This document shows positions 31,340 through 55,400 of a DNA stretch of 64,000 nt, in pieces. The position numbers and the translations under genes were made by a program. Source of the stretch: Amphiscolops sp. MND2022 (taxonomy: Eukaryota). Position 1 is the first letter of the stretch; the number at the start of each line of letters is the position of its first letter. The notes below the pieces were generated by a model. The model did no database searches, had not been told where the DNA came from, and saw only the letters and a list, made by a program, of their open reading frames with translations. The stretch is taken from NCBI GenBank assembly GCA_964187785.1, contig OZ076409.1:66032001-66096000 (forward strand), read 5' to 3'.

Positions 31340-33729
31340 ATAAAATGCGTCAATTTATCAAGCATGGAGGCCCGGAGCCTTGCCGAATTTAATTGTTGGA
31401 GGTGCTCTTTAGTGAACACCTTCATCCAGTGTCTTGCTGATAACTTTAGACCAGACACCTTTTTTAATTCAAGCGTCGTTCACTTGAAAAAAGTTCCTAG
31501 AAATTCACGGATCCCCCAAGCTGAAAACTTGATAAATTATTACTGAAATTTGCGAAACCCCATCAAATGTTTCCTTGTGGTGCTTATTGCTCGCGTCTTC
31601 AAGCTGTTTTTGGAAAGAAAGCACCTCGAGGAGGTAAATGTCAGAGGTCATCACTCAGTGTAATTATCAACAAGCGTGTTTTGGATGGTGTCATTGAGAA
31701 AAACCCGACTATTTGCACTAAACAAGACGAAGGCCGAATCAGAATGGCGAAGACAAGATTGCAGATTTCACGGTCGACAACTACGCAACCCTCAACTTGA
31801 AACATCCGCAGAAACAAAGTTGCTCTATTCCATACACAGATTTTGATCGTTTTCCACACTCGGAGTTTTTCATCCAAAAGGCCCTCATGTCCTTCCCCAA
31901 CGGATCATGTGCATATTTGGATGACATTTCGCCCTAAACTTTGAAAGACCTGATTGCCGTGTCGAATGAGCAAACTGGACTGAACGTTCTCAGACCCTTA
32001 CCAAATTTTGTTGATGTGATTCTCCAAGAAAAAGTACCTTTCGAACTTCGACCGTACTTCTTTGGTGCGAAACTATTTGCGCTTGAAAAGCCCGATGGAG
32101 GACTTTGTCCAGTTGCTTAAGGCAATAATTTCCGCCAGTTGTCCGCAAAATGTGCCGGTTACCATAACTTCGATTCAAGTCAAGAAAAGATACGGAAGTC
32201 GACAAGTAGTGTAGGTACCAAATGTGGCATTGAATTGGCCTCACATGTTTTCCGTTGTCTGATAAAACGCTTCAGCCCAAAGAAATCGTAATCTTGAAAA
32301 TTGACTTCGAAAACGTTTTCAATTCGATAAACCCGACAATTCATGCTCGACAAAAACTTTTGAAATACAACCTGAAGATTACAAGTATTCACACGCAGCG
32401 TACACTCACAGCCTTTTATACGGCAATTCAGTGATCAAATCTTGTGAAGGGACCCAGCAAGGAGATGCTGAGTATCCAGTGTTTTTGCGGATTCCATTCA
32501 GGATCTAATTGCCAGTTTGAAGTCGAAAATAAGTTTATGGTACCTCGATGATGGAAATTTGAGTGACGATTACAGAACAGTTCTGAAGATCTCAAAAGTA
32601 TTGTTGAAGCGGAAAAAAACGATAAGAGTCCAATTAAATCCTTGAAATGCAATTTTTTTTACTTGATGACATCACTGAAAACCACGATCTTGCCGCAAAA
32701 TCGGCCCCAGGATTAAAATACCAAAGAAAAATGTATTTGTCATTCTTGGTCCAACGCTCGCTCTGAAGTCGAAAACAGATTTATTGGAAAAGAAAAACAC
32801 CTAATTGGAAACGTTAATTGAATTGTTCAAAAACTGGATGCGCATAATGTTTTTTTAATGTTGAACAATTGCTTCAGTCTTCAACAATACATGTTTTAAT
32901 CATCCAGCTCTCTAGGAATACTTTGACAAAACCGTACCTGACGGGCTTTCCGAAGTGTGAAACGTGAATTTCGAGTATTTTGAGTACTCAGCTGGCTCTG
33001 AGCGTTCTAATGGGCTGTCTTGGAGTTTCTTCTGCATCATTTGTAGCACTTTCTGCTTTTTTGACCTTAGTTTTTAGTGAAAGTGACTTCTCTCACGACA
33101 ATTTTCTTGGAAACCTTCCAGGATGTGTTGTTAACAAAAGCGCTTGAGAAATGGTTTAGTTTGACGAATGAACAGGAAAGTTCGCTCGACGGAATTTAGA
33201 AAAATTTGATGCAACCTGTCTATTTCAAAACCGCCCAAGACTTTGAATTTTATCAACACTCATCAGATTCGGGTCTCAATGGCTGAACGTCGTGCATTGT
33301 AAGAACCTAGGCAAGAAACTTGATAATCAGCAACTTCGGATTTCAGTTGGTTTACGTCTCGGAGCCAACATTTGTGTTGCGCATACGTGCCACTGTGGTA
33401 AAAGAGTTGAACGGGACGGTTTACACGGTCTTTCTTGCACCAAGAGTGCTGGTCGCTTCTCACGTCATGCTACTCTCAATTCTCTCATAAAGCAGACGTT
33501 GGGACCTCTCGACGGTGTTACTATGATTCCTTGGGAAATGGGTAAACAGCAGGTGCGGGATGTCACGGTTGTGGACGCTCTTGCACCCAGTCGCCTGAAT
33601 CAAGGCTCTTTTTGTAACCCGGGAACCACCGCCACCGAGGCTGAAGCGCGTTAAATTAGGAAGTATTGCGAATTAATAGACAATGGATACATTTTTCAAC
33701 CGGTGGCCTTGGAAGTACAGGTTTCTTTA
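31340..33729 (+). mobile_element. CRE-like non-LTR retrotransposon (RT + restriction-like endonuclease), 5' part, pseudogenised
   Basis: RPYFFGAKLFALEKPDGGLCPVA, LKIDFENVFNSI, GTQQGD (~32450), WYLDDG (~32540), HTCHCG..DGLHGLSC..RH zinc motif, DGVTMIPW..DVTVVD, YIFQPVALE. Confidence 0.85.
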
Positions 33730-33860
33730 GGGTGGGCGAAAATAGGTCGAAGGAACGGGATCGAAAATCAGAATTAGTCCTCAGGTCGACATACCAAATT
33801 TTTGAATGGGATCGAAACAATTCGGATCGAAATTTTCATGACGTAGTCAGATATGTTCAC

Positions 33861-34008
33861 TGTCGTGGGGGAAAACACTACTTGCAGGAAGTTTCTATTC
33901 GATAAGCATTCATCTGAAGTATACATACAACAATTAGGTTAACATAAATAACACAACGACATTATATAACAGTATTAATAACTACATATATATATTACAT
34001 TCAAAACA
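33861..34008 (-). repeat. 3' LTR
   Basis: Direct repeat of 38439-38586, preceded on the minus strand by a polypurine tract. Confidence 0.95.
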
Positions 34009-34030
34009 CTCCTTCCCGCTTCGAAAGTCT

Positions 34031-35140
34031 CTAGTTCATAGCCGACACAAAGTCGCTTAGGTATGTAGGAGGTTTCATGTTCCTAGCCGAGCGTCGCAAG
34101 GTGGCAGCGGGAGAGTCCGGGCTGAATTGAGATTCCTTTATTGGTTCCACAGATTTACGTGGTTCACCTTCGGTTCTGATGTCAGGACCCGATGTTCTGA
34201 TGTCTACATCGGTCTCCTTGTCTTTGTATTGACCTGCTGGTTGTGAGGTCGTTCCTTCATTGTCAATATCCGGCGGTCGTCGAGAGAGGTCACTTGTAGA
34301 AACAGTGTCAGCTCGCCCATCGCCAAAGGAGACTCGTGCAAGGTGAGGGGAGATGACTTCGGATATCTGTACAGGCACAACGGGAGCTTGGTCTTTCGCC
34401 CTTACAAATTTCCGGAGGTACGCGGGAGCGTCTGCTCTGAGCCAAGGTGCGCTACTGGAGGGACGGATCAGCGGCTCGCCGCGTTTGAAACAGAAGAAGC
34501 GATCATGAGGGCTCTCCTTGGTTACGGTATTGATAAGTGTCCGAATCGACAAGAGCGCTGATGGTAGGACACTTTCCCAGTCAGTTAGTGGGCGGTTTGT
34601 GGAGTGTAGCAGGCACTGAACTGCTTTCCACACAATTCCGTTGTAGCGCTCGTTTTGGCCATTGCCCTGGGGGTGGTAGGGCGTAGTTTTGGAGGTCGCA
34701 ACTCTATTTTGGCGGCAGAAGTTTTGGAATTCCGATGAGACGAACTGTGTGCCCCGGTCAGAGTGAATGAACCCAGGTGTTCCGAAGATGGCAAAAAGTG
34801 TTGAAAGACACTTGATGACGCTACTAGACGTGATGTTCTGGAGAGGGAAGGCGAAGGGAAACCTGCTAAACTCATCCACCACTGTGAGAAGCTATTGGTT
34901 TTTGGTTCTAGTCATTAGTTTGGGGCCAACAATGTCGATTGATAGTCGCTCCCAAGGTTTGGAGGATCGAATAAGATCGCTGCCGGGGGGTCGCAAAAAG
35001 CGCGGTTTCCATAGAACGCACGTTTTGCAGTTTTCGGTAACCTTTTTGCCTCATCTAAAGATATTGGAACTTTGTGTCTTTGAATGTATTCGTACAGTCG
35101 GGTCACTCCTGGATGTGCAAGTGTTTCGTGTAGGGTTTTA
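34031..35140 (-). pseudogene. Integrase (frameshift near 35045, stop near 34895)
   Basis: HETLAH...CKTC zinc finger across the frameshift; SIDIVGP, VVDEFSRF, IHSDRGTQF, GNGQNER. Confidence 0.9.
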
Positions 35141-36714
35141 CAGTTGGGCTGTAGGGACGCTAATCGAGACAGGGCGTCAGCTGACACGTTCTGACAACCT
35201 CTCTGGTAGCCTATCTCGAAGTTGTATTCCGAAAGTTCCAGGCGCCAGCGAATCAGTTTGTCATTCTTCACTCTGGAAGAGTTGGGTACAAATATGAAGG
35301 AGAGGGCCTTTTGATCGGTGCGAACTAGAACCCGTGACGTCCGTAACAGGTCTGAGAAACGGAGGAAGCCTTCCAAGATAGCCATAGCTTCCCGTTCAAC
35401 CACCGAGTACGCCATTTCGCTATGTTTAAGAGTTCTCGAGAAGAAACCGACAGGTTTGTCGTTTTGAGTGAGTGTCACTCCGATACCGGTCCCGGATGCA
35501 TCGGTTTGGAGAACGAGAGGCTCGTTTGCCCGGGGCAGCCAAAGTACGGCAGAGGTAACTTCTTTCTTGAGAGTTGCGATAGCCAGCCGAGAAGCTTGAT
35601 TGAGCGGAAAGGCCAGTTGTTTCTGTGTTGCGAGCAGGGTAGCAACCTTATTTGAGTAGTCTGCAATCCACTTTGCGTTGTATGCAAAGAACCCAAGAAG
35701 GCGTTTCAACTGTGACGAGTTTTCGGGGATAGGGAAATCCATCAGTGTCTTGATTTGGCTCGGATCGGGGCGTTTAGAGCCAGCTCCCACGATGTGACCG
35801 AGCATTGGTACTGTCTTACAGCCAAAAACGCACTTAGCTTTGTTCAGTGTCAGACCCTCAATCTCGGCCGCTTTCAGGAAGTTCTTCAGATTTTCTTGGT
35901 GTTCCTCCTCGGATCTGCCTCCGATGATCACATCGTCAAGATATGGGTGCGTTCGCTTCAGGTTGTGCCGGCGTACAAAGGCTGTCATTTCTCGTTGAAA
36001 TGCGGCTACAGCGTTCGTGACGCCAAAGGGAAGTCTTGTGAACTCAAAAAGTCGTCCGTTCACTTCAAACGCGGTGAATGACATGTCCTTGCGATGGAGG
36101 GGGATTTGATGATACGCAGACTTCAAGTCGATTTTCGAAAAAGTAGTGTTCTTGGCTGCTTGGTCAAGCAGGTCTTGCATATTTGGAAAGGGGAAGGCGT
36201 CTTTGGACGTATGACGATTAATTGTCTGAGAATAGTCGATCACCATCTGTGGCTTGGGTCCGTCCCTAACGACAAAGGCTTGAGCCCGCCAGGGAGACGT
36301 GGAAACTTTGATTATGCCTTCAGCGAGCATTCGGTTAACTTCTGACTCCATGAAGGCGACGTCTTGTGGTTTGTGACGACGCGATTTTGTAGCAATCAGT
36401 TTGGCACTATAAACTGTTTTGGAAAGTATGGTCGGAGGGGCAATTTTCATCGCCGGGAACTCCAATTCCTTGAGCCCGGCAGATATAACCGTCTCTGGTC
36501 GATCACCGCCGAATTCCAGTCTCACAGAGTGATGTTGTCGGAGAACGTCAAGCCCGAAATTAACATCCGCAACGAGGGGTTTTGCGACAGTGAAGAGAAC
36601 TTGGTAGGTCTTTTGGTTTACCTCAATTTTAGCTTTAGCGGTGCCTGACGTAATCAGAGAGTCGCCATTTGCCAAGGCAGTGACCTTCGCTTCGCGCGGA
36701 CATTCAGGTCTCAT
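34915..36714 (-). CDS. pol: protease C-half, reverse transcriptase, RNase H
   Basis: SPWRAQAFVV, KIDLKSAYHQI, LPFGVTNA, YLDD, LQTDASG, EREAMA, RTDQKAL, NVSADALSR. Disconnected from gag by two TGA codons and a frameshift at ~36690-36730. Confidence 0.9.
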   Translation of the reverse strand: MRPECPREAKVTALANGDSLITSGTAKAKIEVNQKTYQVLFTVAKPLVADVNFGLDVLRQHHSVRLEFGGDRPETVISAGLKELEFPAMKIAPPTILSKTVYSAKLIATKSRRHKPQDVAFMESEVNRMLAEGIIKVSTSPWRAQAFVVRDGPKPQMVIDYSQTINRHTSKDAFPFPNMQDLLDQAAKNTTFSKIDLKSAYHQIPLHRKDMSFTAFEVNGRLFEFTRLPFGVTNAVAAFQREMTAFVRRHNLKRTHPYLDDVIIGGRSEEEHQENLKNFLKAAEIEGLTLNKAKCVFGCKTVPMLGHIVGAGSKRPDPSQIKTLMDFPIPENSSQLKRLLGFFAYNAKWIADYSNKVATLLATQKQLAFPLNQASRLAIATLKKEVTSAVLWLPRANEPLVLQTDASGTGIGVTLTQNDKPVGFFSRTLKHSEMAYSVVEREAMAILEGFLRFSDLLRTSRVLVRTDQKALSFIFVPNSSRVKNDKLIRWRLELSEYNFEIGYQRGCQNVSADALSRLASLQPNCKTLHETLAHPGVTRLYEYIQRHKVPISLDEAKRLPKTAKRAFYGNRAFCDPPAAILFDPPNLGSDYQSTLLAPN

Positions 36715-36725
36715 TTGGCAGCTGT

Positions 36726-37643
36726 TCAGGCGCTGATAAAGGAGCCCGTGGATCCGGTATCAATCATTGCTTGAACTTGTTCATTTCTTCCGGCAAATTT
36801 GAGGCTGACATTCAGAGTGGCACGGGATATGCCAGTACTGCACAAAACGGCGGCAGTCTCGGGTTCATCATCAGATGAATGTTGTAAGACAGCAGCGGTC
36901 GATCTACATTCCGAAGCCCAGTGTCCTGCTTTCGAGCATTTGTGACAAGTGTCCTTTTTGGCTGGGCACTTTGAGCGTGGATGCTGTTTTAGACCGCAGA
37001 ACTGACAGCGTGGACGAGGCTTGTTCGAAACCTGTTGGGCAGCGGAGTTGCCGGGCCGATCAGGTTGCCGTCGAGTTGTCTGGGAGAACGGCTTGGTTGC
37101 TGCTACAGTTGAAGATTCGGCACTTCTGAAAGATTTGGAAAAGTCACTGGATAGTTCGATAGCACAAGCAAGCGATATGCAGCTGTCAATGTCGGCCTTG
37201 GAGTCTTCCAGTTCCAATAGTTTTGCCCGAATGTCGTCAGACCTGAGACCTGATATTAAAGCGTCTCGTACTAGATAGTCTTTATGTGCTTGGACGGTCA
37301 AGCTGGTGCATTCGCAGTCTTCAACAAGACGTTTCAGCCTTCCTGAAAATTGTACGATAGATTCGTCGTCCTTTTGACTGGCACTGAGCTTTTGATGACG
37401 GGCAAAGAGAACACTCGTGGGCTTCAGAAACTGTCTGTCCAATGTTCTCAGGGCGTCTGCAAACGTTGCAGAGCTTTCGAGGAGAGTGAAATAGTCGGAG
37501 CTGACAAATGTACGAAGAAAAACTAATTTTTCAGCATCTTCGGTTGTGCCATTGATGCGTAAGCCGTCCTCGAAACATTTCTTCCACCATTTCCATTTCT
37601 CGGGAGAAGGATTTGATGGCAAGTCGGGTAGTTTGAACTTCAT
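36726..37643 (-). CDS. gag with two CCHC knuckles plus protease active site
   Basis: CQFCGLKQHPRSKC and CHKCSKAGHWASEC; AMIDTGSTGSFIS. Confidence 0.92.
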   Translation of the reverse strand: MKFKLPDLPSNPSPEKWKWWKKCFEDGLRINGTTEDAEKLVFLRTFVSSDYFTLLESSATFADALRTLDRQFLKPTSVLFARHQKLSASQKDDESIVQFSGRLKRLVEDCECTSLTVQAHKDYLVRDALISGLRSDDIRAKLLELEDSKADIDSCISLACAIELSSDFSKSFRSAESSTVAATKPFSQTTRRQPDRPGNSAAQQVSNKPRPRCQFCGLKQHPRSKCPAKKDTCHKCSKAGHWASECRSTAAVLQHSSDDEPETAAVLCSTGISRATLNVSLKFAGRNEQVQAMIDTGSTGSFISA

Positions 37644-37679
37644 GGGCGTTAGAAGAGGGAATACAGCGCATAGACAATT

Positions 37680-37805
37680 GCTACGAGGAACTTAAGAAAG
37701 TACCGTTGTAGCAGAATCAGGCGATAGCTACGAGGAACTTAAGGAAGTACCGTAGTAGCGGAATGGTCGATAGCTACGAGGAACTTAAAGAAGTACCGTA
37801 GTAGC
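37680..37805 (-). repeat. Three tandem 33-bp hairpin-forming repeats between ORF0 and gag
   Basis: GCTACGAGGAACTTAARRAAGTACCGTWGTAGC at 37680-37712, 37727-37759 and 37773-37805; linkers of 14 and 13 bp. Confidence 0.9.
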
Positions 37806-37852
37806 TTAAACAGGAAAGTCGCTTACCTGAAGACAAGTCCAGCTTACGTGAC

Positions 37853-38419
37853 TTAGCGCGGGCAGGCGCAATGACCTCGAGGGCACTCGTATGTTCGGGG
37901 GTGACCTTGTTTGTCGATCTGGGGGCAGAAGGCTTTCCGAAGTACTCGGTTCTTCAAGATGGACGGAATTCCACTAATGGCCATAGGCTCTAGGTGGATG
38001 TCGTCTAGGGTAGTGTGTTTTTCGACGCAGTAAATGCTTCGAGATATGCCTCTGTAAAGCCAACGGCGATCGTTGTTGTCTTCTAGGAGTCGATTCAAGG
38101 CTTTGGCCTGGTCAGGAATGTTTAGCCGAGGAGGAACCGCGATAACGAAGACTCTGAGTGCAACTTCAGATGCTGCTACGGCAAGGTCAGAGATGTTCCT
38201 GGCAACAGTTCGAGTGGTGTCGGTTGGTAAGTCGTTGCCTCCGATGAAGAATACAATCAGATCAAACCGACCTTTCGCAGGTAAGAAAGGTCTCACGTCT
38301 CCAACTCGGGCACATGGTAGGACGAGAATATTGAAGTTAGGGAACGACAGGTTCCTTCCTTGTGAATCAGTAATAATCAGGTTACGAGTGGGTGAGGTCT
38401 TGAAGAGGTGATAACGCAT
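37853..38419 (-). CDS. ORF0: SGNH/GDSL hydrolase-fold protein inside the LTR element, upstream of gag
   Basis: Open 188-aa ATG ORF; block I LIITDS19, block II LPCA, block III FIGGN62DL, block V D139DIH142L; Cys/His-rich C-terminus. Confidence 0.8.
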   Translation of the reverse strand: MRYHLFKTSPTRNLIITDSQGRNLSFPNFNILVLPCARVGDVRPFLPAKGRFDLIVFFIGGNDLPTDTTRTVARNISDLAVAASEVALRVFVIAVPPRLNIPDQAKALNRLLEDNNDRRWLYRGISRSIYCVEKHTTLDDIHLEPMAISGIPSILKNRVLRKAFCPQIDKQGHPRTYECPRGHCACPR

Positions 38420-38438
38420 GAAGATTATCGAATAGAAT

Positions 38439-38586
38439 TGTCGTGGGGGAAAACACTACTTGCAGGAAGTTTCTATTCGATAAGCATTCATCTGAAGTAT
38501 ACATACAACAATTAGGTTAACTTAAATAACACAAAGACATTATATAACAGTAATTATAACTACATATGTATATTACATTCATAACA
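38439..38586 (-). repeat. 5' LTR
   Basis: Direct repeat of 33861-34008; TATTTAAG at 38521-38528 (minus strand) about 30 nt upstream of an Inr-like TTCAGAT. Confidence 0.95.
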
Positions 38587-38809
38587 TTCACATACCCCTA
38601 GTGCCCTGAATGCAGAAGCGAAGCGATGCGGAGCGACGTGTCATATGGCCATGCCTCAATGTTGCTACTTGGCGAAGGGAGCGAAGCGACCGAGCCACAC
38701 AACAAATACGATAAAATTCGACCGCATTCCATTCGATCCCTGCAATTCGCTCAAAAGGTTCGACCTCTGTCCTTCCGACCAGAAAAATTCGACCTATTTA
38801 CAGCCACCC

Positions 38810-40929: not shown

Positions 40930-42790
40930 TCACAACTTGACTGTAAGGGGGCGGCTGGTGTACTCCTCTTTCCCATTAATCTCAGGTCGTAACATAGCAA
41001 TATAAAGTGACTCCAACGTAACAAGAGTAGAAACATTGTAATGTTTATCAATAATTTTCAAATCGTAGGATTGCAACGAACCACAAGTGCGTAGATGCTG
41101 TCCAATTGGTGCCTTCTCCTTAAGATGCTCATTTACACGGGTTTTCAAATGCCTGTACGTCTGCCCGACATAGCAAGCATTACAGCTTGAACATGTAAAT
41201 TGGTAAATAACCCTGCTGCTGAGCTCCTTTGGAGTAGCTGGCTTCAAACTGGGCAATGCTGTCTTTAATTTTCTTGTCGTAAAAATAACATTCACGGGAG
41301 CAGCTTTTCTGATCTTCTCGCCCAATTTATCAGACAGTTTACCTCGATATTGCAAAATCAATACTTTTCGTTCATTTTTGTCTTTTTTGTTTTTGGTTTC
41401 CGAGGGTTCGGCTGATGGTACTTTCTCCCTCAGAATCTTCTCCAAAGTGTGTCGAACTATTGGGTTAAAGAAGGATGGAGGGTACTGATTAGCCTCCCAG
41501 ATTTCCTTGGCTCGGGTCAATCCGTCGTGAAATTTCTGCCAAGTTGAGCAAGCATTGTGAATGCGGTGCACCATACCTTGAATTGTGTTCCTTTTGTATC
41601 TCTGTGGAGCACACGCATGGTAAGACAAGCAAAGCCCTGTATCTGTAGGTTTTTGGTACCAGCCAGAAGTAAGCGGGCCATCTCTTCTCTCAATGACCAT
41701 ATCTAGAAAAGGTAATTGGGAGTCTGATTCTTTCTCAACAGTAAACTTCAGATTGGGATGTAAGCTATTTATTCTCCCGAGTAGGTCTTCGATTTCTTCT
41801 TCCTTAATTGAGCGCAAAATATCGTCCATGTACCTGTGGAATAATCTAGATGGTTCTTCCTGCCTTTGGGAGAGTTCCACTCTACACCCACAATGCCAAG
41901 TTCCCCTCGGAATCGATCTAATATATTTCACTGACCATCCAAGGCATGCTCTGTGGTACCAAAAAGCACATCGGTTGCATTGCACAGAATACCCTCTAGC
42001 GGTGACTCTTTTCCCACATTTCCCGCACGGGTCCTTTTCGCTCACTGAACATGTTTCTTCTTTTGATTTTTTTTCTTCCAGGCAGTCAATAGGGCCACCA
42101 AGAAATGGCTCAAAGGATTTCAACTATATGTTCGCTAGGAAAACAGCGAGCTTGGAACCGATCGCTAAACCATCTACCTGTTCAAACCACTCTTGGCCCA
42201 CTTGAAATTTCACATTTTTCACATCCACTTTCATAAGTTCCACAAAAATGCTCTTTTCGATTTGCTGTGGGCTATTGCTGTATATTTTGTCCGCTGCTAA
42301 TGCTATAGCCTCATCCACGGTGACATTTGTATACAGGCTAACAACATCCAGAGAAATCAGCACCTCGTCTTCTAAGTGCACTGTGTTGATGTCCTCTTTT
42401 ATTTTCTGTGTCGATGTCTCTATCCCTGCGCCTTCTACATCTTCTATAAGCTCAGCCAGGGCTGATGTCATAGCAACTCCCTGGTAGCGATAACACTGGT
42501 CTGAGTGGTTTTCCCTTTTTGTGTATCTTCGCTAGCCCATAGAGTTTGGCAGGCTGAGCTCCGCAGCTTCTAGAACGGTCGTAGAATTTTTGATCGATTT
42601 TGCCGTCCTTGAGAAATGCATTTAGTTTTCCATTTAATTCTCTTTCCGCTTTCAGTAAAATATCGTGTCCAATCCCTTGTAGTTTTTTGAACTGTGGCCC
42701 GTCCATGAGTTTCGTCAATTTTTCGTTGTAAAGTTCATCACTCATGACACAGAAACCCAAACCTTTATCAAAAGGCACAGTTATTGGGTT
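40930..42790 (-). mobile_element. Penelope-like element (RT + GIY-YIG endonuclease), 5'-truncated, with one stop and one frameshift
   Basis: PFDKG, LYGLAKIHK..PLRPV, SLDVVSLYTNV, QVDGLAIGS, RYMDD, LPFLD, YQKPTDTG; GIY-YIG VIYQFTCSSCNACYVGQT..RVNEH..LESLYI..IN. Confidence 0.95.
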
Positions 42791-42982
42791 ATCTCGTAGA
42801 AAATTATTTCTCTACCCCCTGTTACTCAACTAAAGCCTGTACGTGGCCAACTAAAGAAACGTTCGACCCCTTCAACTGACTTGTCCTTTCGACGACGCGC
42901 GCCAAATACAATCTACCGGCGCCACCACATGCTGGATGTCTCATGTACCACGGGTGTGTGTCTTCTCCCCCCATAATGATAC

Positions 42983-43900
42983 GGTATGGAACCAGCGTGT
43001 AGAATCTAGTTTGTATAAAAGTGAGGCCCAGTTTGTTGAATTTTTTCTACAAACTGGATTCTACAAAATGGGGTCAGGGACATTTCGTCACCAGCCATTT
43101 GGGCGACAATATGGCGTCGATCACATGGGCGACAAAAGTGTCGACCAAATGGGTTGATCAAATTGATCAATTAACTGATATGTTTGAAGAGGTTAGCATA
43201 TTTGTTGTATGGCTCGGTCGCTTCGCTCCCTTCGCGAAGTAGCAACATTGAGGCATGGCCATTTGGCACGTCACCCAGCTTCTCTCCTGCATTTAGGGCA
43301 CTAGGGGTATGTGAACATATTTGGCCATTTAGTCTACGGGACATTTGGGCATTATTGTCGGCGAAATGGGTTGAAATTTTTGTCGCCCAAATGGCTGGTG
43401 ACGAAACGTCCCTGCCCCACAAAGTTAGGTCCAGTCTGTAGAATACCAGTTTGTAGAATTCTGGAATTGAACCAAAACGATAAGACCAATAATGTAGGAA
43501 CGATGCAAAGCATAGAACGTGCCTCGGATATGTCCTCATTTCCGCTGGTGCCCCGCGGCCCCTGGGGGCCGCTTATGTTCCCATCTTGCTAAGCGAGGTC
43601 GAACAGGAGCAAAGACCTAGTGGGAACGGAGATCGCGAAGCGATCGTAGTGGGAGCTGGTATTTGCGACGGTGAGGGTGAGCGTGCATACACCGGATATG
43701 TCCCACATTTCAGTTTTTAGATCTTATTCTTTTAGATCTTAGGCGGTGGAGCTCTCAAGATCTCGTGTGAAGGATGTCCAGTTTGTAGAATATAATGATC
43801 CAGTTTGTAGAATTCAATGATCCAGTTTGTAGGAAAAAAAATTCTACAAACTGGACCACATAGGACCGGTTTGTAGAATTCTACAAACTGGACCTAATTC
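42983..43900. mobile_element. Composite TIR-type insertion rich in CCAGTTTGTAGAAT motifs (second copy 44844-45761)
   Basis: Interrupts the repeat seen intact at 39138-39222, with ATGATAC on both sides; inverted pair TTAGGTCCAGTCTGTAGAAT (43425) / ATTCTACAAACTGGACCTAA (43897). Confidence 0.6.
43071..43418. mobile_element. MITE with ~39-bp TIRs (second copy 44932-45279)
   Basis: GGGTCAGGGACATTTCGTCACCAGCCATTTGGGCGACAA / TTGTCGCCCAAATGGCTGGTGACGAAACGTCCCTGCCCC; degenerate ACAAA(A/G)T flanks. Confidence 0.8.
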
Positions 43901-44581
43901 GATGATACACATGGCACTTGATTGATGACGGAGATCCATTATATCTGATAGAGGAAAAAAACTCATGTATCAGTTTAATTTACAAATAGGAACCACGGAT
44001 TTTTACAATAAGCCTGAATTATTTTTATTATTATGATTTCGAAACAGGGCCAGGGATGTCCTCCCAGTTTTTAGCTTCATATTTTCCACCTGGCAGGTTT
44101 CTGAGTTTTGATGTTATATGGTATCAAAGTAGTTCCATAAATAACACAGAAGTCTGCTTTTCAATCCATTGGCACGTTCAAATTCAATGTTTCTGGGTAA
44201 ATGATAGTTTCAGATTGTCTGTAGTTGTTCAGGCATCAACTTTTTGCCAAACAAATAGCCATTGGCTATCTTAATATTGTTTATCGATTCACTTCTCAAT
44301 GAAGGTTTAGTATTATGTACCAGCTGTTTGAACGCAACATCCGTGGCAATGCAATGATATGTTTACTCGTGCCCAAGAAAATTGATCTTGCAAAGTAGAT
44401 CTATGTAGTTGAATATTTCGTAGTGCTAATCGTTGAAACTCGAATTGTTTTGCTATTGGCCTACTCTAAAATTTGTTCATACTTCAGATAGAAATGATGA
44501 CGATATAATAAATGCACATGAACATGGACCACAGATCTTTGACTATGGCGGAGAAAGATAGATAACCCACGTTGAAAGCAA

Positions 44582-44739
44582 ATGGCCACTGAAAAACAAG
44601 AGTGTCAGAAGGCGCATGACGTGACCAAAGTTGTCGTTCGATGTATTCCAGCAACACTAACTGAACAAGAACTTCTTGACTTGTTCACTGAATGGACTGA
44701 TCATATCGAGTCTTATTACCTGTTGAAAAATGTTGCGAG
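44582..44739 (+). other. UPF3: Duplicate copy of UPF3 coding exon 1 with intact ATG and GT donor
   Basis: MATEKQECQKAHDVTKVVVRCIPATLTEQELL...; differs from 46443-46600 by one R/C codon; donor AG|GTAAAT at 44740. Confidence 0.8.
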
Positions 44740-46442
44740 GTAAATAAAATCTGGTTCGATTATATAATCAAATTTTTTGGCGCCACCACATGCTGGATGT
44801 CTCATGTACCACGGGTGTGTGTCTTCTCCCCCCATAATGATACGGTATGGAACCAGCGTGTAGAATCTAGTTTGTATAAAAGTGAGGCCCAGTTTGTTGA
44901 ATTTTTTCTACAAACTGGATTCTACAAAATGGGGTCAGGGACATTTCGTCACCAGCCATTTGGGCGACAATATGGCGTCGATCACATGGGCGACAAAAGT
45001 GTCGACCAAATGGGTTGATCAAATTGATCAATTAACTGATATGTTTGAAGAGGTTAGCATATTTGTTGTATGGCTCGGTCGCTTCGCTCCCTTCGCGAAG
45101 TAGCAACATTGAGGCATGGCCATTTGGCACGTCACCCAGCTTCTCTCCTGCATTTAGGGCACTAGGGGTATGTGAACATATTTGGCCATTTAGTCTACGG
45201 GACATTTGGGCATTATTGTCGGCGAAATGGGTTGAAATTTTTGTCGCCCAAATGGCTGGTGACGAAACGTCCCTGCCCCACAAAGTTAGGTCCAGTCTGT
45301 AGAATACCAGTTTGTAGAATTCTGGAATTGAACCAAAACGATAAGACCAATAATGTAGGAACGATGCAAAGCATAGAACGTGCCTCGGATATGTCCTCAT
45401 TTCCGCTGGTGCCCCGCGGCCCCTGGGGGCCGCTTATGTTCCCATCTTGCTAAGCGAGGTCGAACAGGAGCAAAGACCTAGTGGGAACGGAGATCGCGAA
45501 GCGATCGTAGTGGGAGCTGGTATTTGCGACGGTGAGGGTGAGCGTGCATACACCGGATATGCCCCACATTTCAGTTTTTAGATCTTATTCTTTTAGATCT
45601 TAGGCGGTGGAGCTCTCAAGATCTCGTGTGAAGGATGTCCAGTTTGTAGAATATAATGATCCAGTTTGTAGAATTCAATGATCCAGTTTGTAGGAAAAAA
45701 AATTCTACAAACTGGACCACATAGGACCGGTTTGTAGAATTCTACAAACTGGACCTAATTCGATGATACACATGGCACTTGATTGATGACGGAGATCCAT
45801 TATATCTGATAGAGGAAAAAAACTCATGTATCAGTTTAATTTACAAATAGGAACCACGGATTTTTACAATAAGCCTGAATTATTTTTATTATTATGATTT
45901 CGACACAGGGCCAGGGTTGTCCTCCCAGTTTTTAGCTTCATATTTTCCACCTGGCAGGTTTCTGAGTTTTGATGTTATATGGTATCAAAGTAGTTCCATA
46001 AATAACACAGAAGTCTGCTTTTCAATCCATTGGCACGTTCAAATTCAATGTTTCTGGGTAAATGATAGTTTCAGATTGTCTGTAGTTGTTCAGGCATCAA
46101 CTTTTTGCCAAACAAATAGCCATTGGCTATCTTAATATTGTTTATCGATTCACTTCTCAATGAAGGTTTAGTATTATGTACCAGCTGTTTGAACGCAACA
46201 TCCGTGGCAATGCAATGATATGTTTACTCGTGCCCAAGAAAATTGATCTTGCAAAGTAGATCTATGTAGTTGAATATTTCGTAGTGCTAATCGTTGAAAC
46301 TCGAATTGTTTTGCTATTGGCCTACTCTAAAATTTGTTCATACTTCAGATAGAAATGATGACGATATAATAAATGCACATGAACATGGACCACAGATCTT
46401 TGACTATGGCGGAGAAAGATAGATAACCCACGTTGAAAGCAA

Positions 46443-49400
46443 ATGGCCACTGAAAAACAAGAGCGTCAGAAGGCGCATGACGTGACCAAAGTTGTCGTTC
46501 GATGTATTCCAGCAACACTAACTGAACAAGAACTTCTTGACTTGTTCACTGAATGGACTGATCATATCGAGTCTTATTACCTGTTGAAAAATGTTGCGAG
46601 GTAAATAAAATCTGGTTCGATTATATAATCAAATTTTTTGGAGGACCCTTCAAAATGTTTTTGTAATAGCATGGATCAGTCTGAAATGTGTCGCTTCTAC
46701 ATGGGATTCAAAGATCTGCAGAAAGCTCTCGCTTTTCATGGAAACTTTGACGGCTATATCTTGAATGATACCAGACTGGTTGTGGAGTTGGCGCCTTACC
46801 CGAGACTTCCAAAAGCATCTCGTTGGAAGGTAGATGCTAAACAGGGTAGCATTGACCAAGGTAATTTTTAATCTTCGATACAAAACATCCGCCTTGATTT
46901 TAACAAAACTTGATCTGGCCATAATAATTTCAAGACGCAGAATATCTGGCATATGTGGAAACATACGAGTCTGAAAGTCCCTCGAAACAGAGTGCTCAGT
47001 CAAATCAAGAGCAACTGCTGATAGAGATGGAGAAACGAAAAGAAGCTAGAGCTTCCAATCAAAATGAAGTCACTCCTCTCATTCAGTCCATCATTGACAG
47101 CCGCACTGTAAGATACACATTTGTTTTTAATTGGTTATCCGAGGCCATGATGAATAAATATGTATTTTCAAACAAAGTATGAATATGCACATATAAAAAA
47201 CGTTATGGATATGTATTTTTGTGCGTTCAAAAATGAAATTGAGCTTCAACTTTGTTGATTGCACTGGTTTCTGTTTTTTTTTCGTTCATTCAAGTCATTT
47301 GAGTTCATTTTGGGTTATGTTTTCCGTTATCGGAGTTGAGTTATTTCATCATTCTTGCACATAACAGAAAAAAAAACGCGTAATTATTGAAGCTTTTTGA
47401 AAACCTCAAGTGTAATAACAGCCGTAAAGCTGGCGTTCCATTTGAGAAAAATCCCATTGTGCCAAAAAATCGAAGGTTTACTCAACTAAAAACCAAAGGT
47501 AAGACTTTTTTGTAATATGGGCACATAAAGTATTATCAACCTACCGGCCTATGGTTTCGGCGCGCTTAGTCCTTTTTGAGTAACAGTAAAGTGAAAAAAT
47601 AATAATAATGACAATATAAGACCCTTTGGTGAGAAAAATTCGAAAGAAATCTCGAAGTGAGGCCCTTTGATATTTTGTAATTTTAAGGGCGGACCCTTTT
47701 TATCAATTTGGCCTTATTTAAACCTTTGCCGAAAAGTAGAACTTTTGTAGAATTTGTTGTCAGTTAAATCGATTGAAATGAAATAGAAAAAGTGCAAAGC
47801 CACTATAATTGCCGGTCTGTCTTTCATACAGCGCCGACTAAAATTGAATGCAGAAAATTAGAGGAGTTGGGAGTGCTTTGACAAAATCTTGAGCATTCTT
47901 TGTAGAGCTGCACTGCAACTTGTGTTCTTGATAATTGATTTTTTTCTTTTTTGGTCTCTTTTAAATCCTTCTTTATATTCAATAAATTTTAAAAACATAT
48001 AGACCGTACGCATCGAAACGTGTAATGGTCTACGTATGTATGGTCCAGGTTACAGAGGGAGCTTGTCAAAAAGGTGTGGAATGTGTCGAACAAAACACCG
48101 GATCGCAAAGTAGATGCTCGTCTATATAACAGCGTATTTAAATCGAGTTGCTCGTTATGAAATTATTGAGAGCTTGAGAGCCTCCCCTCTTCAACGATTG
48201 CGCTCATAGAGGACTCGACCTGGATGACCGTGTGTTTAAGAGATCTACATCCTCTAATAAACAGAATTGAACTCCTCGAAAGTGCAAAACTAACCTTCGT
48301 CCTGATAAATCCTACGACATCAGCGTATGGCTCGGAAGTTGTGTCGCTGAGCTTGACCGTGAGTCTTGTGATGATTTTCGATGCGGACGGTCCGGTTCCT
48401 CCTGTAGTCGCGAAGACGAGTGAGCTGGAAGAGCTCTTTTCGATATTCATGATACGTTGCTAGTATATGCGTTTCCTGCTTGAATTTGTTTCGGACAGGA
48501 GTTAGCGAGCGGTTGAAGATTGACATCGAAGGTTTTTGAATAGAAAAGTCTGTTTGCTTTGATGTCTAATCTAGCTTCATCTTCAGTGCTCGTTGATTTA
48601 TTATCGAAGATCTCGCCTTCTAACGGCTGAAGTTTCGGTTCGATTTCAACATCGTTGCAGACGTCTCCTAGGAGCTTAGCGAATGTGTCGCGAATTTCAT
48701 TGTGCCGCATTTGGTTATATCCGCCTGTTGCACAGTGTAAAGCCTGTGATATAACAAAAGGTTCACCGCATGCACACAAAATACTGAGATTTTTCGCTTC
48801 CCTTCCATATCGGAGAGCTAAGCCGTCTCTGAATCGATTTGTTTAGGGCGAGGCCATATTTCTGCAGAGAAAGCGCGTTGAACCAACTAGAGGCTCCTTT
48901 TACTGAGGACAGCTTAACTCGCCCTCAGTTACGACCTCTTCCAGTTTTTCAATTTTCGTGATGTTTTGTAATTTGTCTCTTGAGTTCGCGAGTACTGTGA
49001 ATTTTCCGCGGCTAGGGACTCCACTCCGTTCAGACATTCACTCAAGGCGACCGATCGTGAATAGTCCCCGGTGCGGCCATCGGATGAGAGGATGTTGAGA
49101 CCATTTTTTAGATGGAGTGAGAAGAGCAAACGCTGCTCTTCTGTGTGAGCGGTCTTTCCAGTGAGCGCAGTAGCAGTTTTTCCGAGATGGTCTTTTCTGT
49201 TTCTTTAGTAAAGGCTCCATGTCGGGTGTGGTTTGGGAGAGAAACGAGAATTTGTTCTGTATACCTTGTCTAAAGGCGTGGTATACCTTTTGCGGCGATT
49301 GTCGGGCGTGAGTGGCGAGCTTTTAGACTTGGTGCTGGTATTCAGTGGTGACGTTTTCTGAATTCGTTGCACGCTGCTTCGGAGCGTATTGTGGAACCTA

Positions 49401-52400
49401 GCACTCTGTGTCCGGGAACAATCTCTATGTCGATATCAAGTCGAACTAGTTTTTTCTCTTGAAGTTTTTGTTTGATAATAAGGTTGCTTTTCGTTAGCTC
49501 ATATGCAAATGCTGGGCCATGTTTTTGTAATTTGTTTTGCAACGTGACGAGTGATTCCAGTGTTCCTTCAGAGTTTCTGTCATCGGCGTACCACTTTTGG
49601 GTTACCATGTCATCTTTAAGCAAATCGATGAGTTGTAACAGTGCAACTCCGTACATCGCCATTGCAAGTGGGTCGCCTTGTGTTGTTCCTTTCTGTGATA
49701 GTATCGTTTTCGCGTTTACAAACAAAAGAGAGGGTGATTCGTAGGAGTTTCTAGGCGCGTTAATGTGCGTGAAGGTGCTTGATAATTGATTGTTCTTAAT
49801 TCAGCGGTTGAGAATTTCCATTTTCTCATGGGGAAGTATGAAAGGAGGATCCAAAGAGGAAAGTTCCTAAATTGAGTTCACGCAATATAATTTTATTGTT
49901 TTGATCATTCTTTTCTGCTGGGAGAACTCAACGTTATTGAATTGCTTTTTGTTGTTTTTAGTCGGCGTTTTCGAAGAAAATCCCGACTCCTACAGTGGCT
50001 AGTTTTTTTTCGTCAGTTCAACGCGTAACGTCCACTTTTTGTGCATTATAATGCACATTTACCAACTTTTACCATATGTACTTAATACTTCATTTTCAAC
50101 GCATCCAAAGCGTCTAACATGAGAAAAAGCGTCCCCCTTTTAAATTTTCGGCACTATTCGACTTACCGGAAACTTCGAAAAAAACAAAAAAATTCGGAAA
50201 TTTTTTTTTCTCAATTTTTAGTTTTTTGAGAGCTTTTGTTGTCTCCAGTTGTAGAAAAAGTGGTTTTCGAGTCTTTTTGAGCCTTAGATATGGCGCCGAC
50301 TTGGGCCGTTCCCGGCTTGTTCTCAATTATTTGGTTATGATAAGTTTGTTTGTTAGCCCCCTATTTAACGAGGGACCAGTCTAACAACAAGTTGAGGCGG
50401 TGTCATCACGCTACGGAGCATCCTTACGAGCTCCTTACGCTGTCATTAACGGTCCAATTGGTATAATTTGGAAAAATTTCGACCACTGGCGGACTAATTT
50501 TTTTTTGAAAAACCGAAATGCAAGTCAAGATAATCACAAAAGGTTCATCCTCAAGATAAGCACCAGTGTCGGTTTGTCGTAAATCAAGACAGCTTTCCCC
50601 GTGTACAGTCGCAGCAATAGATGCATCGACTTCTAACTGGCGACGATTGTTTCGGCAGCTTTTCTTTGCTTCATACTCAATCTTTCTGCAAATATCCTCA
50701 GTGAATTTGAGCATTTTTCGGTTAAATAGTGAATCTGTCGAAAAACTATTTTCAGAGCTCTAATTAGTTGTTTCTCTGAAGATGTGTGAAGAGCATTGCT
50801 AGTTGATAAGAGGAAATCAGTGTTTGGAAGGAATACAAGAGTATGAAATAGGTTCGACAATTTTTTTGGTTGATTCTTGCTAATTTGCTAAATTTTCATT
50901 TTATATCAGTTTTGGATTGTTTCTATACCCCATAATGATTAGTTTTTGCACATGACGAAGTCAATGTGCATTGCAGTCCAGCTAAGTAAGTTTTTTTTCC
51001 ACTATAGTCAACTTCATAATGAGCGCCTTTTAGATAAAAGCCAAAACCCCAGAGAGATTCGAACCTGCAGCCTCCCGATTGCACGGCATAAGTGTTGACC
51101 ACTGTGCCATAGGGACGTTATTGAACTGTTGAATATATACGCATGCGATTAAAATAATATATACGCATATTAAAATAATCGATGTCTTCGTCATGTGTTG
51201 CGAAGCACCGCTTCGCCTCTGTGTTAAACCTTTTATTTAGCTGCGGGTTTCAGCCACGGAGCCAGGATAGTTTTCGCCTGAGGTTTTATTTTCAGCCGCG
51301 GCTTTCAATGCCGAAGTTTGACGAAAGTTTCGAAGGTCGGTAACTGAGTTGTTTCATGGACGATTTTTGTAACCAAATCAATTTGTGCTCATTCGAAGAT
51401 TTTTTGAAATGTTTTGTTTATCAGTCCAGTTGATCTTAACAGAAAATCCACACTTTTCGAACATACTTATCGACCCCCGCTTTTCAGCCGATTCCCAATT
51501 GTTTCTCAACATTTTTCGAATTGTCAGAATTTTCCTGGACGAAAAGATGCGTTTTTAGTCGGCGCACTTTTAAGGAAATATGCCGACTATTACAGTGACC
51601 AGTTTTTTCTCACATGCGAATGGTCCGCTTTTCAACAGTTTAGAGATTGTTCACGCCGCCGCCAGTAGCAATGCACACTTTCCCAAGCAGACGGCCGTCG
51701 GTTGGATGTCTGCCGATGACTGAATGTATTTGTTCGCAAACCCCTGGGTCACCCCTTTGGGTTTTTTGGCAGTGTGCGATTTTTTTTTCATTTCATCAGT
51801 GGGTCCCCTCTTCGGTTTTTCTCGAGTTTCAACTTCCAAAAAGATGTTTATCAAGACTAACGCTTCTCATCTTTGCGTTTTTCAGCACTGTGTGACCTTT
51901 TTAAATGTTCATCAGCAATTAGTGTTATTTTGATGTTTTCATTGAACAAAGCGTTTCTGGAGACCCCGTGTCGCTCCTTCGGATATTTTAACACTCTGAC
52001 ACTTATGAAAATTTACTTGACACTAGAAAACTTTGAGACTTTGCGCTTTTTGAGCTTCAACAGGGGCACCGACTTTTGAAGTTCGTTCCAGTCTTGTTCA
52101 ATTTTTGTTCAGAAGTATCAACCAATTTGTGCCTTAATCTTTTCCAAATTTCATTCAGTTAGGCTAGAAGTTTGAGCGCATTGCGCAAACATATGCGAAG
52201 CACTGTTTTCCTCTGCTAATTACTTGGGGGCGATCTTGTGTTCACTTGTATTCCCATCATAGAGAATGTACGGTATGCCGTTTCATGTGCGAATACGTCC
52301 TTTCTACGTACACGATCTCTAGTTTCTTGAAGATTAATTAATCGATTGGCGGTTACTTGATTTTTCTATTGCATATCTGAATTGTTCGTTTCAGCGGAAA

Positions 52401-55400
52401 GATGACTTCACTATAAAGGTGCGTCAAGAAGAAAGGCGAAAGCGTGAACGCGAGGCTGAAATAGCGGCGAAAAAGAAGCGAGACGAAGAGAGAAGAAAGA
52501 TGTTGGACAAGAGAGAAGCAATTCTGAAAGAGCAGCGAGATAAAGAAGTGTGTATCAGTTGAATTATTCTGCATTTGTTGCACCAAATTATAGTTAAATC
52601 AACCAGCTTACTTTGTTTGATCATTTCATGTTAGAGCATGTCGACTGAAACTCGATAATTTTAACAAATGATGCGAAATCTACAGTTTCATAAATCTATC
52701 TATTCAACTGAGCATGTTCATGGCATTCTCACAATCATGAACATAAGTAGGGATTGAGAAGATAAGATTCAATTTCATTGAGTTTTGGAAAAACAACAAG
52801 ATGTATTTAAAAGCTCCCGAATAGGACGTAAAAGGAGCAAAGAGATGCTTTTCGAGTTTACGCCCTTTGAATCCAAGTTGAAACCAATGAATTCCAATCA
52901 ATGATGAAAATGACCCTTGTAGATGTTTTTATTGATTAGTTATAGAACAGTTCTAAAAGTTGTTTGCTGTCAATAATGTAGAGTAATGTAATATTTGTTA
53001 TTTTGTTTGTCAAGGCGACATTTTCCAGAGAATAATGATGCTTTTTTGTTCAAAATTTAGAAACGCGGCAAATTTCAAAAGGCTGAGGAGAAAAACGCTG
53101 AACGCGAGAAAATAAGCAAAGCTCGCACGACTGATTCTCAAAGTGAGGAGAAATCTCTGTCTGAAAAGGGAGACGGGGATGATACTCTTGAGAAAGGAGG
53201 ACTAGCGGGAGAAACCAGTAAAGCGGAGAAGACCATGAATAGTTCCGAAGAATCCAGGAATGAGACAACCAAGGTCCCTGCAACTTCTCGTGCATCCCGC
53301 TTGAAGGTTGGTTGCAATCTGTTCTGCAGAGTTTTATGCTGTTTCTGTTGACGTGTTCATTGTGACCTGACCTGTTACAGGATCTTCCGTCCATCAAGTA
53401 TTACACTCCAGCTGCTAAGGCAGCCAAAGCTGCTTCTTCAACTGAGCCAGGTTATTTTTCAAGGTTCCTCGAAGCGTATTACAGTCAACTCCGGTTGTTT
53501 TTGGTATTTCTGTGTAAGCGGGAATAATAAAATACTAGAATCATTTTTTTCGGATCAGCCAATCTTACAATCAGTACAAAATATCTTGACTAGGCGAAAT
53601 GGATTCTGTTAGCAGTAAGCGATCGCTTGTTGTTTTATGCAATTGATCGTTCGCTGCGAACTTTTCAAAAGTTGATTTTACCTAGCAGCATTGACTTTTA
53701 TTAGAGAATAATTTTTATTCATGTAACGGAGCTTTATCTCGGATTTGAATTTTTTCAGTGAAACTTATTTGGATTGATTTTTTGCTAAATCCAGAAATTA
53801 GGGTTGTTTTCTAAAAATTTACTCTGAATTAAATGTCTGCAAATTTCTCTAATGAGATTTTATGACAAAGAAATTTTCAATTTTTAAAACTAGTACTTTT
53901 GATTTTTTTTTTGGAATTTTTTGCTTTTGCCGAAATATTTCAGCTCCAAAGGAGGTCAAGCGTGCAGGAGTCTTAGTTCCCTATAACCGAAATTTGTTAT
54001 AGGCAACAATTTTTTTTCTGATGTTTGAAAAATCGTTCGTGCACAAAACTCATCAAAATTACATAGAAAACGCGAAGTTGGAATAAGCTTGCGGTATTCA
54101 TTTCCCTGAGATTCGAATGATTAGGTGTAAACGACATAATGATGTCTGACTTAGCCTATGCATCGTAGTTATTTCGTTGACTGTATCATCTTGACGAAAT
54201 TCAAAAAGTACTTTTCGTGTGTCAACCAGAAGGATTTTAAGAGTGTCCCCTTTGATATATTTTAGATATCGATATCTCCACAAGCCCGAATGGTCACCAT
54301 TTGCATTTTTCTAACTTGAAGTCTTATTTTTTCTCTGGAAGAATTCAAGAAACGTCGAATTTTATTTTGCTTTTTAAGTCTCTTGTGCCAGTCTTTCTAT
54401 AATGTAATCTTGATGATAAAATATCGCTGTGTTTTCAGTGCCCGAAGAACGTTCATATTCCTTCCTCAACAGAGACATTGAAGACAATGAGAACACTGGA
54501 CGAGAACGAGGCGGTGGTGGTGGCAAACGAGGCTTCGGTCGTCGAGGAGGAGGTCCTGCTTCAGGCCGAGAAATCAAACCTTCTAGGGGCATGCATAATG
54601 GGGGCCCCACTTATTCCTCCCGCGGTGACAAGAAACGGGACCGAGACAACAGGAAAGATTCGAATCATTCCAGCCAGGACACATCTGTCTCTGTTGAAAC
54701 GCCTGATAAAGGGAAAGAAAAGGAAGAAGATAGGAAAGAACGGAAGGATGAATCAACAACAGAGGATGGTGTCATCGGCAAAGATACCCCTGACCAGGCT
54801 AAGTCTACTACCGAAGGCGAACCGAAAAAGCAGCCTTGTATTGTTAAGTACCCCAGAGATGCACCTTCGGATGGTAAGGGCGGCAAAAACAGAGACGGAC
54901 CTCCAAAATCGAAGGGAAAACAAAACCGACGTCAAGGAGCTGCTGATGACTGGGGAATATACGATGACTCGAGGCAGGGTAGTCATGGACAGTACTATGA
55001 TTGTCCTCCCGCTTTCTATTCCAGTTCTTGGTCGCGAGGTGGGGGAAAAGGTGGCGGAGGGTCTCATCATGGAAGCTACTCCTCAAGAAATGGAGGCGGG
55101 GGTTATAACCAACGCCAATATGATTATGGATACGGCCATAACCGCAATTCGTATGACTTCGACCGTTATGTTGATAGACCTCCTTCATCTTCGGGTGGTC
55201 AATCTGGAAAAGGTGGTCCCCAGAAAGCTCCTCCCCCGGAGAAAATTAACCGTGGAAGCAAAGCATTCGCTGGTGAAAGTAAACCCGCCGCCGTTTTTGA
55301 GTCAGCCGAGAGAAGTTTGAAAAAAGCAGAAGATGGTGGCAAGCCTCCTCGTTTCAGTGACAAGCGAAGAGCTACTGCATTGGCGGGCAACCAAAACTCA

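Follow-up and report, generated by a model that had tools for sequence, protein, structure and literature searches.

The 64-kb window (the whole stretch of DNA analyzed here, 64,000 nt) holds on its minus strand a Ty3/Gypsy retrotransposon of ~4.7 kb, which runs from LTR to LTR between 38586 and 33861. The 5' LTR (38439..38586; 148 nt, TG...CA) is paired with a 3' LTR (33861..34008; 148 nt) at 6 mismatches, and the insertion is flanked by a target-site duplication, GTGAA, whose left copy (38587..38591) and right copy (33856..33860) were recognized by flank comparison and, for the left copy, by reference to an uninterrupted host repeat near 43190-43400 that has the five bases once. This host repeat matched the left flank over ~130 nt and the right flank over merely five further bases. 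Read 5' to 3' on the strand of the element, the 5' LTR is followed by 1 base, a 13-nt primer-binding site (PBS; 38425..38437), 5 bases and the ATG of ORF0, a 188-aa frame for a predicted SGNH/GDSL-fold protein (37853..38419). Downstream of ORF0 are a splice-donor-like site (37821..37829), three 47-nt hairpin units (37670..37814), gag (36726..37643; CCHC knuckles, continuing into the start of the protease), pol (34031..36725; protease, RT, RNase H plus integrase) and a polypurine tract read from the sequence (34009..34022). ORF0 lies on the gag-pol strand between the 5' LTR and the gag ATG at 37643, which confirms the arrangement given in a preliminary description of this DNA, and the spacer between ORF0 and gag (about 209-216 nt) holds the three 47-nt units.

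Pfam domains occurred in the element in the Ty3/Gypsy arrangement (zf-CCHC, RVT_1, RT_RNaseH, rve), the protease motif DTG precedes the RT in pol, and the best matches of the RT region against PDB include Ty3 Gag-Pol (E 3e-48). By its LTRs, target duplication, polypurine tract and gene order the element is a Ty3/Gypsy LTR retrotransposon. In the integrase frame rve was the sole Pfam match at E ≤ 0.1, with no chromodomain match. Past the integrase stop come the purine tract and the LTR; the esterase ORF sits upstream of gag instead. No env was found in the element by open frames and Pfam. Within the 64-kb window there was neither a second ORF0 copy nor a tRNA gene, and pol had no relatives in viral_contigs.

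Three lesions disable the gag-pol region of this copy: one frame change near 36726 (protease), which breaks gag, a second near 35040 (zinc finger of the integrase) and, at 34894-34892, an in-frame stop. Two sister sequences (P0312 and P0295) encode gag-PR-RT in a single frame. The preliminary description had set the open ORF0 against the broken gag-pol, and both halves of that observation hold; the openness is no evidence of selection, because at three breaks per 3,613 nt a 567-nt frame stays open by chance with a probability of 0.62. The window copy is a decaying insertion whose own ORF0 may be impaired.

The PBS is not of the TGG tRNA type. Its 13 nt pair without mismatch with LTR nt 104-116 (38471..38483), the predicted self-primer segment, and the fold of the pair is far better than that of shuffled sequences (z -5.3; 0 of 200 shuffles as good), in line with the self-priming stem described earlier. 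A predicted self-primer has been defined as at least 10 nt of LTR complementarity located 0-5 nt past the 5' LTR (PMC6317226, in its available text); here the complementarity spans 13 nt and begins 1 nt past the LTR. Judging from read-through proteins, one stem pair combines an LTR G with a PBS C in P0015, P0051 and P0356, as it does in the window copy, whereas P0008 and P0011 would have A and T at these sites. As deduced from the amino acids, this is probably a single G-C to A-U covariation event; both sites are CpG, so independent decay of the pair is possible. With an RNA start slightly further upstream, the stem would cover part of the ORF0 AUG, which might couple priming to translation.

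Each 47-nt unit of the spacer closes with a pyrimidine-rich TAG and folds better than shuffles (z -3.1 to -4.3), and a single unit is present in the sister read-through P0010. The hairpin array noted earlier therefore stands at the level of its three units, but not as a fold of the ~216-nt spacer as a whole, which is no better than shuffles (z -1.1). No Rfam match was obtained in the leader or the spacer at E ≤ 1. The units are putative signals, possibly for packaging or translation.

Several other features were observed in the window. A repeat related to the insertion target of the Gypsy element occurs in two copies 1,861 nt apart (42905-46135), and a copy of this 1.86-kb repeat lies between two UPF3-like exons (44582-44740 and 46629-46868, plus strand; PF03467, E 5e-4 and 2e-10). 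This split gene marks the host as a eukaryote, which judging from the transposons present is probably an animal. A Penelope-like element (40930-42811, minus strand) has a PHD finger (PF00628, E 1e-4) apparently inside its RT, between the RT motif (frame 42124-42531) and YMDD, after which GIY-YIG follows; an insertion at that place in a Penelope-like RT would be unusual. Three near-identical tandem units of ~3.37 kb each occupy 54134-64000, each with a Gly/Arg-rich open frame of 305-332 codons and no Pfam match. Decayed retroelement fragments (Gypsy-like pol and LINE-like RT pieces) were found at 1100-7600 (minus strand), 33247-33651 (plus strand) and 48450-49800 (minus strand).

The ORF0 protein and its family

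The 188 open codons of ORF0 (38419-37853, minus strand) encode the blocks TDS (S19), GGND (N62) and DDIH (D139, H142), and position 36 in block II is Cys in the window copy. An AlphaFold2 model computed from the family alignment (pLDDT 91.3, pTM 0.89) gave 45 Foldseek matches at E ≤ 0.001, and those listed are SGNH-type; the ZfL2-1 esterase (4c1b) ranked 24th (E 4e-4). By VIA-align the top match was a sialic acid esterase (Z 16.4; 158 residues aligned at an rmsd of 2.3 A), followed by PAF acetylhydrolase (Z 15.7), and the OSK domain (5a4a) came 30th (Z 12.4), under active enzymes. The SGNH fold covers residues 1-167. Sequence-level matches were fainter: the Pfam GDSL match of the window ORF0 (E 0.0055) reached 17.7 bits against a curated cut-off of 32.9, among the 36 family members in the alignment 25 match PF13472 at E ≤ 0.1, the best of them at 1.5e-8, and blocks III and V align with the GGND and DxxH of 2vpt at a weak score (E 0.24). 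A PDB sequence search gave 0 matches with alignment A1 and non-significant matches alone with alignment A3; matches to InvG in this search, also non-significant, were taken as chance. The predicted structure makes it nearly certain that ORF0 has an SGNH fold, which bears out the assignment originally made from its motifs.

The modeled protein is globular, and by hydropathy (in place of a dedicated predictor) it has no evident signal or membrane segment; the highest 19-residue hydropathy was 0.65-1.75 across 20 subfamilies. The family proteins are basic (pI 8.4-10.5). Beyond the fold lies a His/Cys tail (H173, C179, C184 and C186; 37856..37906), delimited by conservation in the full-length family proteins, that is a possible zinc site, as judged from the residues.

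A word search returned 36 relatives of ORF0 (42-95% identity), all from ENA. A profile search over 1.84 billion representatives gave 366 matches at E ≤ 0.001, of which 164 reach E ≤ 1e-10; those listed are the best 150 of the 366. For family counts, 358 sequences (gag proteins included) were reduced to 294 that match the profile and to 109 that are full length, with the other 185 profile-matching sequences excluded; at 75% identity the 109 proteins form 20 subfamilies. S19 is present in 109/109 and the complete Ser-Asp-His triad in 100/109; H4 (104/109), C179 (102/109) and C186 (101/109; counts summed from the table) are likewise conserved. A search of 7,993 candidates for longer, fused forms of ORF0 turned up none, a result of little weight, and there were no ORF0 relatives in viral_contigs or genome_contigs.

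Two substitutions mark the window copy. The Cys in block II had been listed among the features of the protein, and it is indeed there, but it is private to this copy and not a family trait: Gly stands at position 36 in 21 of the 25 full-length proteins of the window's subfamily and in nearly all other subfamilies. At position 146 the window copy alone in its subfamily has Met. All five motif residues are intact in 17/25 full-length proteins of the subfamily. Such private changes, in the window copy and in sisters, are explained by decay after insertion.

Selection was read from a comparison of the window ORF0 with a relative encoded on a metagenome contig (L001). The two share the same residue at 84 of 185 codons (45% identity), with codon-position identities of 0.57, 0.63 and 0.26 and with pS 0.92 and pN 0.39; the 5' part of the relative on a second contig (L002) gave the same codon-position pattern in comparisons. 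Synonymous sites are saturated while amino acids are conserved, and the ORF0-family protein is therefore under purifying selection, where neutral evolution had been named beforehand as the outcome that would count against a function. The view that ORF0 is a neutral passenger, or a mere regulatory upstream ORF with an irrelevant product, could draw on the private changes and the 17/25 count above, but it is largely refuted by this pattern between subfamilies and by the retention of triad and tail across 27-52% identity, and we regard it as extremely improbable. ORF0 is almost surely a real selected gene, and the family very likely contains an active enzyme.

Two distant subfamilies (P0194 and P0197) are without the His/Cys tail and have a normal Met content; these SGNH relatives are possibly a source lineage or a gene of another element. 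In the family tree this tail-less pair stands apart from a single clade that unites the types of the window, L001 and L002. The midpoint root of the tree serves for drawing alone, and because the backbone is open (7 of 26 inner branches are starred) we do not read a direction of transfer from it.

Sister copies appear to keep ORF0 at the position predicted for them. Eleven sister proteins run from the same LTR/PBS into ORF0, six run from ORF0 into the spacer, and P0324 runs from the spacer towards gag. As a proxy for linkage we also compared contig sizes, with the clusters represented by 15/30 and 15/29 members and with the window's own contig, P0034, and the gag matches P0307, P0309 and P0320 excluded: of 57 contig sizes for close ORF0 relatives, 17 recurred among the contig sizes for gag relatives, compared to 1 of 53 for other subfamilies (Fisher p 5e-5). 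These two lines of sequence evidence support the conserved placement. In addition, P0309 (a diverged gag, 66%) and the diverged ORF0 P0086 come from contigs of the same size, a hint of a second Gypsy family with its own version of ORF0.

Relatives in other retroelements and expression

The two metagenome contigs place relatives of ORF0 in other kinds of element. L001 reads, in order, an integrase end with DUF5641 (E 3e-8), ~660 nt, the ORF (865-1461) and a TGG-type (tRNA) PBS near 1541. We take DUF5641 to be a domain linked to BEL/Pao elements, and judged by its domains and their order L001 is a BEL/Pao element carrying an ORF0 relative at the LTR position. The ORF lies most simply inside the LTR, because it stands between the integrase end and the PBS. 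In each of two clusters from the L001 subfamily, a pair of members lies on equal-sized contigs (182/186 and 182/198 residues identical), which agrees with an ORF inside the LTR. In L002 a frameshifted ORF0 relative precedes a frame nearest to the L1-type cluster Transposase_22 (0.86); this neighbor is likely a LINE ORF1, a reading we treat as a lead only. After the esterase stop of L001, a 30-nt segment from GTAAGT to TTGCAG (1500-1529) resembles a very short intron.

These contigs alter the earlier picture in two ways. The accessory esterase had been ascribed to one Gypsy lineage, and L001 places a relative of it within a BEL/Pao element. The esterase, the self-priming stem and the hairpins had also been joined into one distinct module; they are not one unit, because L001 has a tRNA-type PBS and no array of the 47-nt type behind its ORF.

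The coding regions of the relatives are free of internal start codons. The L001 ORF has 0 internal ATGs in any frame against 5.2 expected from dinucleotides (p 0.006), and the L002 ORF has 0 against 10.4 (p 3e-5); a single ATG lies between 364 and 1585 in L001 and none between 945 and 1764 in L002. In the window ORF0 the deficit is not significant (2 internal ATGs compared to 6.2 expected, p 0.05), and both ATGs fall at private codons (36 and 146). Gag DNA, with 13 internal ATGs and 13 expected, has no deficit. Across all full-length proteins internal Met accounts for 18 of 21,120 residues, or for 10 of 3,893 (0.26%) with one protein per subfamily, as compared to 2.0% in pol, 1.5% in the tail-less outgroup esterases and 0.45% in the Gag proteins of this family. 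As Gag is also Met-poor, the count from proteins carries less weight than that from DNA, which rests on two loci. T occupies -3 at the ORF starts of the window, L001 and L002; in the latter two, the ATG that follows carries A at -3 together with G at +4.

The lack of internal ATGs together with a weak start followed by a strong one in L001 and L002 suggests leaky scanning, and in rice tungro bacilliform virus (RTBV) a weak first start with an AUG-free region leads to scanning as far as the third ORF (PMC3542737). ORF0 and Gag would be translated from one RNA: a share of the ribosomes would initiate at the weak ORF0 AUG, and the rest would scan the AUG-poor region as far as the next gene. From these sequence features we consider leaky scanning past ORF0 probable. 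The window copy fits less well than L001 and L002, in that its gag AUG carries C at -3, a weak context, and that at 37671, 28 nt before the gag start, there is an out-of-frame ATG. For the expression step alone, cis- or trans-splicing between ORF0 and gag might act instead of leaky scanning. Donor-like sites do occur 27 nt past the ORF0 stop in the window and 39 nt past the ORF in L001 (none past the L002 ORF), and acceptor-like sites precede the next gene at all three loci, but such short motifs are frequent by chance, a cis-splice from the window donor, which sits past ORF0, would leave ORF0 in place, and splicing would not need the removal of ATGs from all three ORF frames. We therefore give splicing a minor chance compared to scanning.

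Function of ORF0

Our proposed explanation is that ORF0 is a conserved SGNH-fold gene ahead of Ty3/Gypsy gag encoding an active cytosolic esterase, expressed by leaky scanning, whose basic protein would bind acidic membranes and hydrolyze esters in the manner of the zebrafish ZfL2-1 esterase; its target would be a host lipid or acyl ester at particle-assembly membranes. The ZfL2-1 enzyme slowly hydrolyzes pNP acetate and butyrate and binds acidic phospholipids (PMC3905857, available text). Since the elements that share this family have structural proteins unrelated to one another, a host substrate is likelier than an element-specific one. As a joint explanation of enzyme, expression and target, this reading has roughly an even chance; by analogy, a lipid or membrane taken alone as the target of ORF0 would be slightly favored at best.

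A less probable use of the same enzymatic activity is counter-defense, in which ORF0 would deacylate a host silencing or restriction factor, or a signaling molecule, and so shield any retroelement that carries it. The presence of one family in Gypsy, BEL/Pao and perhaps LINE elements suggests that the target belongs to the host, small-ester deacetylases such as PAF acetylhydrolase and sialate O-acetylesterase are among the closest folds, and the 5' position may give early expression. On the other side, the basic surface equally suits membranes, and the ZfL2-1 esterase is reported to be inactive on acetylated histone peptides (PMC3905857, available text); we would give counter-defense perhaps one part in five of our confidence.

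Replacement of Env is less plausible again. Here the enzyme would remodel membranes and so let particles pass between cells, such as out of the soma into the germline, an idea that the preliminary description had raised and that accords with the missing env, with a proposal of Env-free transmission for Drosophila MDG1-group elements that have a small ORF upstream of gag (PMC11952523, in part) and with the naming of membrane penetration as a possible GDSL role in the available text of Rodriguez et al. The same authors hold GDSL ORFs lacking TM or coiled-coil parts to be unlikely env-like proteins, and the ORF0 model is soluble and globular, with hydropathy maxima (0.65-1.75) unlike those of the transmembrane sORF2, so that an env role is disfavored and we regard it as unlikely.

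Least tenable among the roles considered for the protein is that of a non-catalytic, OSK-like RNA-binding domain recognizing the hairpin array or the genomic RNA, which had likewise been suggested. The match of 5a4a to the ORF0 model (Z 12.4), the basic pI and the hairpins adjoining ORF0 in the window element are compatible with such a domain. However, the triad is kept in 100/109 proteins and S19 in all 109, active enzymes rank above OSK in VIA-align, no hairpin array follows the L001 ORF, and with the ZfL2-1 esterase no binding of oligo-A RNA was seen (PMC3905857, available text); we consider RNA binding in place of catalysis very doubtful.

Returning to the esterase reading, a wider and more speculative proposal would make the small His/Cys-tailed SGNH lineage a 5' plug-in cassette, built for leaky scanning and attacking a host lipid or defense factor, that is exchanged among the Gypsy, BEL/Pao and LINE elements of one host; it would provide an enzyme-based route over membranes or past silencing without Env. 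We put this forward as a tentative idea with a low probability. Why several classes of retroelement keep an esterase is a standing question (PMC3905857 and PMC5408684, as far as their available text goes). The ORF0 family is small and stand-alone, has catalytic residues intact in 20 subfamilies and is common to elements with unrelated shell proteins, and for this reason the question becomes testable with one soluble protein, with a host-side substrate indicated. The ATG-free design in turn suggests a simple way in which an accessory gene can be placed before the first gene of any retroelement without blocking that gene.

Comparison with known systems

The following comparisons draw on the available parts of the papers cited. 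SGNH proteins had been placed outside the standard Ty3/Gypsy gene set; ORFs of this type have been published for LTR elements (Vesta ORF3; PMC5408684) and for Ngaro-like elements, where the enzyme class is thus no novelty. A stand-alone SGNH ORF upstream of a Gypsy gag was not found in the open literature, and the layout may already be held in Repbase, GyDB or supplements; the available part of PMC2774666 has nothing on esterases or self-priming. The parts of the system are known, and the placement, the tail, the ATG-free design and the sharing with BEL/Pao were not found in the literature searched.

With respect to translation, in RTBV ORFs I-III, as for ORF0, the first start is weak and the coding region upstream lacks AUGs, which permits scanning to a later ORF, but RTBV is a plant pararetrovirus with unrelated proteins, and scanning is demonstrated there and deduced here. 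With respect to priming, Tf1/sushi elements likewise have a PBS that complements their own LTR: in Tf1 the pairing with the PBS spans 11 bases and the primer is excised by RNase H (PMC7175516), compared to 13 nt in the window element, where the complementarity is read from sequence alone and the integrase frame has no chromodomain match. With respect to position, accessory ORFs between the Gypsy 5' LTR and gag are known from the MDG1 group of Drosophila (sORF1/sORF2; PMC11952523) and from plant Ty3/Gypsy elements (PMC6317226). MDG1 sORF2 differs in being a short transmembrane FAST-like protein, and in the available text no esterase is named among the plant 5' ORFs. The OSK domain has the SGNH fold without the catalytic triad and is described as non-catalytic (PMC3905857), whereas the ORF0 family keeps the triad.

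Ngaro-like elements of Xenopus (DIRS order; 10.1101/2021.08.05.455354) also carry an extra stand-alone SGNH ORF of unproven function in a gag/RT retroelement; they differ as tyrosine-recombinase elements without LTRs, in which the ORF follows YR. The esterases of ZfL2-1 and of CR1/RTEX/Penelope elements resemble ORF0 in SGNH fold, 5' position in the RNA, basic character and intact triad. In the non-LTR element ZfL2-1 the esterase makes up ORF1p together with a fused coiled coil, whereas ORF0 stands alone beside a true gag, and 4c1b is not closer to it than are bacterial and mammalian enzymes. Vesta of bdelloid rotifers has, like the window element, a separate ORF with intact GDSL catalytic residues in an LTR element lacking a canonical env, and there too the ORF type is common to unrelated retroelement classes, GDSL ORFs being present in Vesta and Athena (PMC5408684) and in Terminons (PMC6431247). 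Compared by description, Vesta ORF3 lies downstream of pol in a dUTPase element and measures ~1.3 kb as amplified, whereas ORF0 is 567 nt long, lies upstream of gag, ends in a His/Cys tail and is ATG-poor.
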